Shown one piece after another: positions 17,610 to 22,339 of a DNA stretch of 64,000 nucleotides (positions are counted from its first letter, which is position 1; each line of letters begins with the position of its first letter). Under the pieces are notes generated by a model that searched no databases, had not been told where the DNA came from, and saw nothing but the letters and a program-made list of their open reading frames with translations. The stretch lies in NCBI RefSeq assembly GCF_053078305.1, contig NZ_CP166879.1. One strand, given 5' to 3'. The translations under genes and the position numbers were made by a program.

Positions 17610-18829
17610 TTTCCGCCTCCAGCATCCCGCCCACGTTTTGCAGCCAGGGTCCAGCCTGATGAATGAGCTTCTCCGGGTTTATCACCGGTCATACTGTTGC
17701 AGTGCCACAGCGAGCCCCCCCACGTCACCGTATCGCCGGGGTGGTAGGTTTCACCGGCTCTGAACACACCGCGGTAGAGCATCACCGGCAGGGAAAATGT
17801 TTTTTCCGTACGCTGGCCACTGCTCTGCCGGACCACCACAGAGAACAACCGTTCACCCGTCATGCTGACGTCAATATCCGCCACCCCGTCAACCAGGCAT
17901 TCCCATCCCCGCATCCCGTGCGTTTTTTCATACGCCCGCCAGAGTCCGCCCTGGTGTGTGGCATACGTGCCCCGGGGAAAGGATTTTTGATCGTCAATGG
18001 CAGGGAGTATTTCCAGTGCCGTGGCATCACGCCCGTCCTGCGGAGCCGGCAGGGCACTCACCGCATCATTCACCGCCTTCTGCAGAACATCCGGATCATA
18101 GTCACGACCATCACGCGGAACAGGAATATGGCTTACCGCCTCCTTCACCATCTGCTCAAGCATCGGACGCACATCATCCGGGGTGATACTTTTACCGTCT
18201 GCCGGCTGCGGAATATTTGCGACCGCATCATTCACCGCCTTCTGCAGTACTTCCGGATCATAGTCACGACCATCACGCGGAACAGGAATATGGCTTACCG
18301 CCTCCTTCACCATCTGCTCAAGCATCGGACGCACATCATCCGGGGTGAGGCTTTTACCGTCTGCCAGCTGCGGAATATTTGCGACCGCATCATTCACCGC
18401 CTTCTGCAGTACTTCCGGATCGTAGTCACGACCATCACGCGGAACAGGAATATGGCTCACTGCCTCTTTCACCATCTGTTCAAGCATCGGACGCACATCA
18501 TCCGGGGTGATACTTTTACCGTCCGCCGGCTGCGGAATATTTGCGACCGCATCATTCACCGCCTTCTGCAGTACTTCCGGATCGTAGTCACGACCATCTC
18601 GCGGAACAGGGATATGGCTTACCGCCTCCTTCACCATCTGCTCAAGCATCGGACGCACATCATCGCCCGTCACGCACTTCTGTAATACCACAGACAGGGA
18701 AGCCAGTTTTTCTTCAAACGTTTGTGCCTGCGCGGCTATTTTCTCCTCAAATGTGCGCTGTAAATCCGCCAGCACCGCGGAAAATTCTTCACCCAGCGCA
18801 CGGATAATGGACAGTTCACGTTCATTCAT
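17606..18829 (-). CDS. Repeat-containing virion-associated protein (coiled-coil N-terminus, four 44-aa tandem repeats, C-terminal CBM-like domain)
   Basis: 407 aa; repeat DGKSITPDDVRPMLEQMVKEAVSHIPVPRDGRDYDPEVLQKAVNDAVANIPQPA x4; C-terminal ...GETYHPGDTVTWGGSLWHC... Confidence 0.6.
   Translation of the reverse strand: MNERELSIIRALGEEFSAVLADLQRTFEEKIAAQAQTFEEKLASLSVVLQKCVTGDDVRPMLEQMVKEAVSHIPVPRDGRDYDPEVLQKAVNDAVANIPQPADGKSITPDDVRPMLEQMVKEAVSHIPVPRDGRDYDPEVLQKAVNDAVANIPQLADGKSLTPDDVRPMLEQMVKEAVSHIPVPRDGRDYDPEVLQKAVNDAVANIPQPADGKSITPDDVRPMLEQMVKEAVSHIPVPRDGRDYDPDVLQKAVNDAVSALPAPQDGRDATALEILPAIDDQKSFPRGTYATHQGGLWRAYEKTHGMRGWECLVDGVADIDVSMTGERLFSVVVRQSSGQRTEKTFSLPVMLYRGVFRAGETYHPGDTVTWGGSLWHCNSMTGDKPGEAHSSGWTLAAKRGRDAGGGK
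18070..18665. repeat. Four near-identical ~132-bp tandem DNA repeats inside the 17606..18829 gene
   Basis: Visible directly in lines 18100-18630. Confidence 0.85.
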
Positions 18830-20401: not shown

Positions 20402-22339
20402 TCAGCCGCCGGACGCACTGCCGTAGTTCACACCGGTGATCACCGCCACCGCCGCGGTACGGCGACGACGCCAGTTGATCCAGCGCTCCGCACGGATGGC
20501 CACACTGCCTGTCTGGAACATGGAAACCAGCTCCACCGGCGACGGCGTGGTACTGTCGCCGGTCGGCTCAGACTGCATTTCCAGTGATGCCTCGCGGGAC
20601 ATATCCACTGCCACGCCGCCGTCATCCGCCAGATAAATATCCGGGGCATTCACCAGCACCAGCTGGTCACCCACGTACTGGGAGACAATCACCGGCAGCC
20701 CCTGGAAGGAGCCACCCAGCAGGGTCATGTCCGGGTATTCTTTCTGACCCAGCGCATTTTTACGCATGGACAGTGCCAGGGCATTGGTGCTGGACATCAG
20801 CCAGACCGCACCGGTGGGTTGCAGGTTTGCTGCCACAAACTGTCCAAACGCAGCCTCTGCATCCGCATCCGGGTTACCGCTTGATGCCGTGCCCTTCACA
20901 TCATGGGTGATGGACGCCGGGGAGACATCTGCCACCGCCGCTTTTTTCGGGTCCACAAAGTCTGTATCCAGACGCGCCACCACCGCTTCCGCCAGCGCAT
21001 TACGGACCAGTGCATCAGCAGCCGGACTGGAAAAACGGATCAATTCTTCCGTCAGTACCGCAATGGCCGACACCTTCGCATGACTGAAGGTGATGGATTC
21101 AAAATCAAACTTCGTCAGGGGTTTTGCCTTACCCTCACCCACCCAGCCGGCAGCACCGCCGGACACCTGGGCGTGCACACGGATATTGAACGGCACCTGA
21201 CGAAGTGCAGGGATCCCGCCCTGACCAAATCGCCCGATAATGGTCTGAGGACGCAGGTAATCAATAAAGTCCTGTGCGTATTCCTGATATTCAGACAGGC
21301 TGCCTGCCCACTGCGGATCCGTGGTGGTCCCCGCGCCCACTGCCGATTTCAGGACATGATGCAGACGACTGTCATCCGGATACTGACGACGGGCCACTTC
21401 CAGGGCTTCAGAGCGGACACCTTTAGCCGCAGCCAGCGATTTGGCAAAACGTGCGAAACCAATCCCCTTATCCAGTTTCTGCTCCACACGGATCACCGGC
21501 GCAGAAGCCACCGCGGCCACATTCCCGTTACCGGCCTGTTTCACCGGCTGCGCCGTGGCGGCCTTACCGGCTTCCAGTTCACGCAGGCGCTTCAGGTGCG
21601 CATCCACCTGACGGATTTCCGCTGCGGTGTTGTCGTAATGCTCTTCCTCCTCCACATCCAGCGTGCGCCCTTCCTCTGCGGCTTTGGTCATGACCTCCTC
21701 AAGGGAGGCTGCCAGCGCTGCACGCTTGTTTTCAAAACTTTTAATCTGTTCGCCAATATTCATTATGGTCTTTTCCTTATGAAAAACGGTTGTTGACTGT
21801 GCCGCAGCGCCGGCAGAAGATGCGATTTTCACCACCGGTTTCCGGTTGCCGGACGCGGCAGAAAACGGGCGGTCGTAAGATTTAATGGTCCGGATAGTGC
21901 ATTCCGCATTCGCGGGCACGGTGACGGCAGACACCTCCATCAGCTCCCAGCGCAGAAAATGCACTCCGCCTCCGTCCAGAAAGGTGTATTCATGAGGACG
22001 GAAGCCCACGGACAGCCCCCTGACCAGCCCGGTCTTAATGGCCGCCCAGACCTCATCCAGCCGGGCAGCCAGTTGCGACGGCATATCCGGTACGGGTTTC
22101 ACCAGTGTTGCCGTGATTTCCAGCCCTTCGCTGACCCGGCGCACCGTACACTGCCCCACCGGGCGGGAATGGTCATGCTGCCAGAGAAACGGGATCGCAC
22201 TGCCAAACTCCGCGCCCTCCGGCTCCAGGATGTCACCATCCCGATCCGGAGAAGGCGTTGACGCAATCCCGGTGATCACCCGCTCATCCTCACTGAAGGA
22301 TTTCACCGTCAGCAGGGAGCAGGCCCGTTTAAGAGTCAC
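20402..22339 (-). CDS. Prohead protease - major capsid protein fusion (HK97 fold)
   Basis: 645 aa; N-terminal ...GIASTPSPDRDGDI... protease domain, C-terminal HK97-type capsid domain. Confidence 0.8.
   Translation of the reverse strand: MTLKRACSLLTVKSFSEDERVITGIASTPSPDRDGDILEPEGAEFGSAIPFLWQHDHSRPVGQCTVRRVSEGLEITATLVKPVPDMPSQLAARLDEVWAAIKTGLVRGLSVGFRPHEYTFLDGGGVHFLRWELMEVSAVTVPANAECTIRTIKSYDRPFSAASGNRKPVVKIASSAGAAAQSTTVFHKEKTIMNIGEQIKSFENKRAALAASLEEVMTKAAEEGRTLDVEEEEHYDNTAAEIRQVDAHLKRLRELEAGKAATAQPVKQAGNGNVAAVASAPVIRVEQKLDKGIGFARFAKSLAAAKGVRSEALEVARRQYPDDSRLHHVLKSAVGAGTTTDPQWAGSLSEYQEYAQDFIDYLRPQTIIGRFGQGGIPALRQVPFNIRVHAQVSGGAAGWVGEGKAKPLTKFDFESITFSHAKVSAIAVLTEELIRFSSPAADALVRNALAEAVVARLDTDFVDPKKAAVADVSPASITHDVKGTASSGNPDADAEAAFGQFVAANLQPTGAVWLMSSTNALALSMRKNALGQKEYPDMTLLGGSFQGLPVIVSQYVGDQLVLVNAPDIYLADDGGVAVDMSREASLEMQSEPTGDSTTPSPVELVSMFQTGSVAIRAERWINWRRRRTAAVAVITGVNYGSASGG

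Follow-up and report, generated by a model that had tools for sequence, protein, structure and literature searches.

Within a 64,000-nucleotide (nt) stretch of DNA (NCBI RefSeq assembly GCF_053078305.1, contig NZ_CP166879.1; hereafter the window), the head genes of a prophage include a 645-codon open reading frame (ORF) in which a prohead protease and a major capsid protein are joined. Conserved sequence features make it most probable that two products are encoded in frame within this ORF, namely the 645-amino-acid (aa) protease-linker-capsid protein and, from Met193, a 453-aa capsid protein with its own scaffold domain. Such a nested pair is the most likely reading because a conserved Shine-Dalgarno (SD) motif and start codon sit at the capsid boundary. 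A rough probability of 0.68 is given to the explanation as a whole, namely that the region is the intact head-assembly module of a lambdoid siphovirus prophage of the BP-4795/2851 type and that its capsid gene is read from two starts. The broader proposal, for which the balance tips slightly to the favorable side, is that such a pair, with the protease-capsid protein as the minor and the capsid protein as the major product of one ORF, is conserved across a very large HK97-like lineage, the protease being loaded as part of a shell subunit and not via a targeting tail or a separate scaffold. The ORF and its parts are as follows.

20402-22339, minus strand: fused protease-linker-capsid ORF, 645 aa, 69.0 kDa, with a GTG start and matches to S78 and capsid profiles
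21881-22288, minus strand: S78 prohead serine protease domain, residues 18-153; matched by PF04586, beta-rich, predicted local distance difference test (pLDDT) about 90 over residues 20-150
21764-21880, minus strand: disordered hypervariable linker, residues 154-192; pLDDT below 50 over 154-190, not alignable across relatives
21774-21778, minus strand: internal SD-like AAGGA, 10 nt before the internal ATG
20402-21763, minus strand: proposed short in-frame product from Met193, 453 aa, 48.2 kDa, suggested by the conserved start
21554-21757, minus strand: helical hairpin, residues 195-262; AlphaFold helices 195-223 and 229-262 with pLDDT above 90, TIGR01554 match from residue 204
20420-21472, minus strand: capsid shell domain of the HK97 fold, about residues 290-640, from Foldseek against the PDB

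The 645-codon ORF opens with a GTG at 22339 that is served by an AGGAGG SD sequence (22345-22350, minus strand) at a spacing of 5 nt. The helical domain begins with Met193 (ATG at 21763), and TAAGGAAAAGACCATA precedes this ATG. When 39 diverse fused proteins are aligned, the variable linker ends in Met (Val in three) right before a conserved "xIxEQI". In the DNA of 71 distinct fused junctions, collected from IMG/VR and metagenome loci, a start codon is present at the capsid boundary without exception (ATG in 68, GTG in 3). An SD-like motif (AAGGA or AGGAGGG), with an anti-SD pairing energy of -4 kcal/mol or better, accompanies 94% of the 71 junctions as opposed to 21% of controls, which were other internal ATGs and random in-frame positions (Mann-Whitney p about 1e-33), and the spacing from SD to start codon is 5-10 nt in 68/71. 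Information content, calculated from 33 representatives with less than 70% protein identity, is 0.0-0.6 bits per position across the linker (-40 to -16), rises to 0.7-0.9 bits at the SD core (-12 to -9) and reaches 2 bits at the start-codon T and G. Against the variable background of the linker, the SD and the ATG are the sole conspicuous elements. The residues through which the SD is encoded vary (K-G, Q-E-G, K-E, T-E, N-R-R), and so does the codon phase, which therefore points to selection at the nucleotide level and not to a peptide motif. Where glycine contributes to the SD, the GGA codon is used in 55% of cases at the junctions versus 8% elsewhere in the same genes. Around the junction (-20 to +20), the RNA is predicted to have less structure than at other in-frame positions of the same genes (mean z = +1.15, Wilcoxon p = 1e-7). 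Relatives in which the capsid protein stands alone begin at query residues 192-196, and in relatives with separate protease and capsid genes the same SD and ATG serve as the start of the capsid gene. A second in-frame ATG, Met217 (21689-21691, minus strand), was also considered. It has a GAGGAGG 2 nt upstream and was judged not to be a start because of this 2-nt spacing and because the Met is conserved in only 20/44 sequences.

The domains on either side of the linker were identified by profile and fold searches. Residues 48-152 match PF04586 (Peptidase_S78) with 35.1 bits (cut-off 21), residues 386-635 match PF05065 (Phage_capsid) with 52.5 bits (cut-off 24.2), and residues 204-584 match TIGR01554, the HK97-type major capsid protein model, with 77.3 bits (cut-off 27.5); the E-values place these assignments far beyond chance. 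In PHROGs, phrog_617 covers the fused protein from end to end (E = 3.6e-261). Profile searches with the 645-aa protein matched no protease family other than S78, lambda C-like (ClpP-like) proteases included. A sequence search of the PDB yielded a single weak match, to the Bxb1 capsid, and a fold search was thus needed to confirm the capsid fold. Foldseek against the PDB found the Bxb1 capsid (9d9w, E = 1.3e-15) and the HK97 gp5 entries 1ohg, 2fte and 8cfa (E about 1e-10 to 1e-11, template-modelling score 0.62-0.75). The AlphaFold model of the protein was built on 44 sequences and has a mean pLDDT of 82; in it, the hairpin is followed by a short disordered stretch and then by helices and the shell domain to residue 640. 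By its position, the hairpin of residues 195-262 is predicted to correspond to the delta (scaffolding) domain of HK97. Across 39/39 fused relatives, His55 and Ser110 do not vary, and neither do Asp32, Glu135 and Ser137, a pattern that would fit a putative active S78 serine protease; judging from what is known of the family, His55 and Ser110 are presumably the equivalents of the catalytic pair of HK97 gp4. An earlier reading of the window from its letters (the sequence-only reading) had placed the prohead protease and HK97-fold capsid domains in one 645-codon ORF, and the profile and fold searches bear this out. Its description of the ORF as a fusion holds in that there is a single ORF, but it is probably incomplete, as the conserved internal ribosome-binding site (RBS) and ATG suggest that the capsid protein is also translated separately.

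How such a nested pair might work can be outlined. Initiation at the upstream GTG would yield a 69-kDa protease-capsid protein, and initiation at the internal RBS and ATG (Met193) a 48-kDa capsid protein. Since scaffold and shell domains are common to both, the long and short products should co-assemble, and they would do so on the portal. The long form would tether protease domains to the inner surface of the prohead, and how many are tethered would depend on the relative use of the two starts. Once the particle is assembled, the protease would cut off the scaffold domains and itself, to be followed by expansion and by DNA packaging through the terminase small and large subunits (TerS and TerL).

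The distribution of the ORF and of its neighbors shows how widespread this arrangement is among relatives. Throughout this part of the window the genes lie on the minus strand, and they are transcribed in the order HNH endonuclease, TerS, TerL, 645-codon ORF, 73-codon ORF, portal, 407-aa ORF, head-tail connector. Apart from the 645-codon ORF, the features of the module are these.

24902-25267, minus strand: HNH endonuclease gene; PF01844 HNH, E = 7.5e-7; the counterpart is named "HNH endonuclease" by the NCBI Prokaryotic Genome Annotation Pipeline (PGAP)
24061-24654, minus strand: TerS; PF03592 Terminase_2, 34.9 bits versus a cut-off of 26.1; annotated as TerS in BP-4795 and 2851
22403-24064, minus strand: TerL, 553 aa; PF03354 ATPase and PF20441 nuclease domains
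22361-22378, minus strand: terminator-like hairpin and T-run from a consensus scan, located in the 63 nt that separate TerL from the fusion gene
20136-20357, minus strand: 73-codon ORF; phrog_829, E = 3.7e-39, function unknown; hypothetical in BP-4795 and in PGAP
18826-20190, minus strand: portal of the HK97 family, 454 aa; PF04860, E = 8e-82; TIGR01537, 352.5 bits versus a cut-off of 112
17606-18829, minus strand: fibre-like protein, 407 aa; its ATG overlaps the portal stop (ATGA)
17283-17609, minus strand: head-tail connector; TIGR01560, 46.8 bits versus a cut-off of 24, and also PF05135

The 5.8-kb block from TerS to portal has 95-97% nucleotide identity to BP-4795, 2851, YYZ-2008, Stx2 phage 1717 and JLK-2012 and is found at the same identity in dozens of phages converting their hosts to Shiga toxin (Stx) types Stx1a or Stx2c. 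The genes of BP-4795 from ORF54 to ORF60 (AJ556162) are the same in content and order, with essentially no difference from the window; there, ORF56 is annotated as "putative major head protein/prohead protease", ORF57 as hypothetical and ORF58 as "putative portal protein". The 3.5-kb region with the fused ORF and the portal (18826-22339) is present in 1254/5426 complete E. coli genomes, in up to seven copies per genome. A family search of 1.84 billion cluster representatives with the 645-aa query returned 12581 relatives of the fused protein at E<=1e-3 and 1184 at E<=1e-30. The best 150 of these 12581 are almost all 630-680 aa long and align over their full length, down to 38% identity, and five stand-alone capsid proteins, whose alignments begin at query residues 193-196, are found among them.

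Gene order was surveyed in 80 IMG/VR loci, with counts limited to loci that had enough flanking sequence. In 67/67 loci, the portal gene is found downstream on the same strand; in 61/68, the gene immediately upstream of the fusion is TerL. A relative with only 38% identity (L005) shows TerL, fusion, two ORFs and portal; in the split relatives (L006 and L007), TerL is followed by a 224-aa protease, a 467-aa capsid protein, a 131-aa ORF and the portal. Because these split relatives keep it, the capsid-before-portal order is independent of the fusion. It is a fixed order of a large HK97-like lineage, which runs TerS, TerL, protease/capsid, small ORF, portal, fibre-like protein, connector. The sequence-only reading had put the fused ORF directly after TerL and the portal gene downstream of it, within a module of 18826-22339, in reversal of the usual portal-protease-capsid order. 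The gene coordinates agree with this placement, the 454-aa protein proves on a hidden Markov model check to be an HK97-family portal, and the given span runs exactly from the portal stop to the fusion start. The comparison with related loci, which that reading had proposed as a check, shows the arrangement to be lineage-wide and not peculiar to the prophage in the window. The 73-codon ORF that sits between the capsid and portal genes, overlapping the portal start by 55 nt, had gone unmentioned; it is present in most of the closer relatives, and more distant ones have other small ORFs (71-131 aa) in the same place.

The simplest competing account of the 645-codon ORF is that it encodes a polyprotein only: every capsid subunit would be made as the 645-aa fusion from the GTG, its own protease would cleave it after assembly, and the internal SD and ATG would go unused. 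The uninterrupted ORF, kept at full length in nearly all of the best 150 relatives, is consistent with this notion, as is the description of composite protease-scaffold-capsid genes in Gifsy-2 and MD8, which makes no mention of internal starts. The modest SD of the window itself also fits, being of the weaker type (AAGGA) at a rather long spacing of 10 nt, and this is one of several points that weigh against a nested pair. The proposed short product is deduced from comparative sequence; the compared sequences are related, so that the statistics overstate their independence; SD-like motifs inside genes can alternatively act as pause sites; the A-rich composition of the linker could add to the low predicted structure; and, with regard to the protease assignment, the HK97 protease equivalog model TIGR01543 scores 47.4 on the 645-aa protein, under its cut-off of 59. 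Nevertheless, a polyprotein leaves unexplained why a start codon (71/71) and a canonically spaced SD (94%) should persist within a linker that cannot be aligned, why the SD should be encoded through varied amino acids and codon phases, and why GGA should be so strongly over-used at the SD-forming position. It also offers no reason for the split relatives to start their capsid gene at the very same site. A polyprotein without internal initiation is thus considered unlikely, if by no means negligible. Far less credible is the idea that a recently lost stop codon or a frameshift created the fused ORF, and that capsid-before-portal is a local rearrangement in a defective prophage. Prophages often decay, and PGAP calls the neighboring portal region "frameshifted" in a near-identical genome, but the inducible phages BP-4795 and 2851 carry the same fused ORF in the same order, and both features are found in the 1254 E. 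coli genomes as well as in relatives down to 38% identity. This family-wide conservation already refutes decay as an explanation.

The PGAP label raises a separate question, which is whether the portal itself is a frameshifted pseudogene, the true gene being a portal of about 860 aa fused to the 407-aa ORF and the head module hence non-functional. In the near-identical E. coli genome NZ_AP045167, PGAP joins the portal and the 407-aa ORF into one "frameshifted" portal pseudogene; phage 2851 has a single 859-aa ORF made up of the portal and its neighbor, and both parts are covered by the profile phrog_2271. A single G separates the two forms. Near the 3' end of the portal gene in the window, about 15 nt before the stop, lies a run of five G residues (18841-18845, minus strand), and just ahead of the stop a run of six A residues (18829-18834, minus strand), with the next ORF in the -1 frame and an ATGA overlap. 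A junction alignment of nine sequences shows that a sixth G, in phage 2851 and in loci L008 and L009, joins the portal to the next ORF, whereas the window, BP-4795 and others have five; this allele is the difference between phage 2851 and the window. The split form is that of BP-4795, the two genes are separate in 66 related loci and joined in 4, and the 407-aa ORF retains its own ATG, overlapping the portal stop. Moreover, the 454-aa form of the portal falls into clusters with thousands of members, and relatives outside E. coli have portals of 444-452 aa. Given the two alleles, the ratio of 66 to 4 loci and the large 454-aa clusters, the portal of the window is taken to be intact and the pseudogene label to be probably an annotation error; a disrupted portal appears very improbable. 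A programmed -1 frameshift from the portal into the 407-aa ORF was considered as a general mechanism in view of the -1 frame and the G and A runs. It was not adopted because the runs are absent in L020, most relatives have separate ORFs, and insertion of a single G explains the fused alleles; in the E. coli phages such a shift may still occur.

The 407-aa protein is itself a regular member of the module, as nearly all related loci have a homologue after the portal gene. It begins with a 50-residue N-terminal helix and contains 3.7 copies of a 162-nt (54-aa) tandem repeat (18060-18664), the copy number of which varies among relatives of 248-463 aa. Its C-terminal beta domain is well predicted and shows a weak likeness to chitin-binding domains (CBM5/12) and to the tips of phage tail fibres, and a fold search gave weak, partial matches only. 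The C-terminus of a portal normally faces the capsid interior, and a carbohydrate-binding-like domain is therefore hard to reconcile with a fusion to the C-terminus of the portal.

In-frame nested protease/scaffold genes are known from other head-assembly systems. In lambda C/Nu3, Mu I/Z and herpesvirus UL26/UL26.5, the long product contains the protease, and a shorter product from an internal start is the abundant assembly partner, setting both the dose of the protease and its targeting to the procapsid. The window resembles lambda C/Nu3 and UL26/UL26.5 in having an internal in-frame start with its own putative RBS at a domain boundary. The difference lies in what is shared: a separate scaffolding protein in lambda, Mu and the herpesviruses, as opposed to a capsid protein with a built-in scaffold in the pair proposed here.

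With HK97 (portal gp3, protease gp4, capsid gp5, in that order), the window shares the portal family (TIGR01537), the protease family (S78) and the capsid fold, and the predicted N-terminal helical scaffold domain of its capsid protein is reminiscent of gp5 with its delta domain. It departs from HK97 in having protease and capsid in one ORF ahead of the portal, and in the extra small ORF and the fibre-like gene that flank the portal. Fusions of protease and capsid genes are in themselves well documented. Gifsy-2 is lambda-like, and in lambda-like genomes the portal comes before the capsid gene. For Gifsy-2, a "tripartite capsid gene" with protease, scaffold and capsid in one gene has been described (Effantin et al. 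2010, as cited in PMC12315714), and gp5 of Pseudomonas phage MD8 likewise combines the three (PMC8508860). The ORF in the window is similar in that it holds protease, scaffold region and capsid together, but its protease is of the S78/HK97 type, unlike the lambda-like proteases of Gifsy-2 and MD8; that of MD8 resembles the lambda protease-scaffold protein (PMC8508860). The domain order is also that of the NCBIfam family NF045541 ("prohead protease/major capsid protein fusion protein"), in which the protease also precedes the capsid. This model gives the window protein 54.4 bits against a cut-off of 525 and covers residues 48-287 only, and on account of this score and the N-terminal-only match, the window protein is placed in a different fusion family. 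The same protease-capsid order is routine in actinophage annotation, as "major capsid and protease fusion protein", and is found in the Rhodobacter RcC phages.

The fused ORF, the gene order and the module are thus already known and very common, having been annotated since phage BP-4795, and roughly one in four complete E. coli genomes carries the gene block; their observation here is of little consequence in itself. Only the conserved internal start may be new, and it is to be regarded as a testable inference from comparative sequence and not as a result; no description of an internal start in protease-capsid fusions was found in the searchable literature, which is an incomplete library. If true, the conserved internal start would be a simple account of how the protease is dosed and loaded in this lineage, and the nested-gene logic of lambda and the herpesviruses would extend to a capsid protein that bears its own scaffold. 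Because these head genes build the virions of long-tailed Stx1a- and Stx2c-converting phages, their true products matter for virion proteomics. PGAP calls the 645-aa protein just "phage major capsid protein" and, in at least one near-identical genome (NZ_AP045167), puts a frameshifted-pseudogene label that is probably wrong on an intact portal and its neighbor.

Some further features of the module and of the window deserve mention. The start of TerS is uncertain, since the listed ORF opens at a TTG and the first ATG is at 24618. Terminator-like sites in the region are no more numerous than expected from shuffled sequence, which makes the hairpin at 22361-22378 weak evidence for a terminator between TerL and the fusion gene. 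The HNH gene at 24902-25267 lies directly upstream of the small terminase gene. HK97 likewise has an HNH gene beside its terminase, and HNH-terminase pairing is known from HK97-like cos phages; the gap at 24655-24901 may hold a cos site.

Two metagenomic phages, L088 (3047-6331) and L089 (8001-11276), encode proteins of 1094 and 1091 aa, respectively, in which an AAA ATPase is fused before the protease-capsid unit. Their gene order is TerL, fusion, small ORF and portal, after which a collagen-like gene and a methyltransferase/glycosyltransferase cluster are situated inside the head module. In L088, an SD and an ATG are kept at the protease/capsid junction (Met621). These ATPase-protease-capsid triple fusions hint that the same route may bring other cargo into capsids.

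Motifs of the Shiga toxin A and B subunits were looked for in all six frames of the window, and none was found. The window does contain a cluster of three tRNA genes at 32982-33231 on the minus strand, Met(cat), Arg(tcg) and Arg(tct), which resembles the cluster found upstream of the stx genes in Stx phages.

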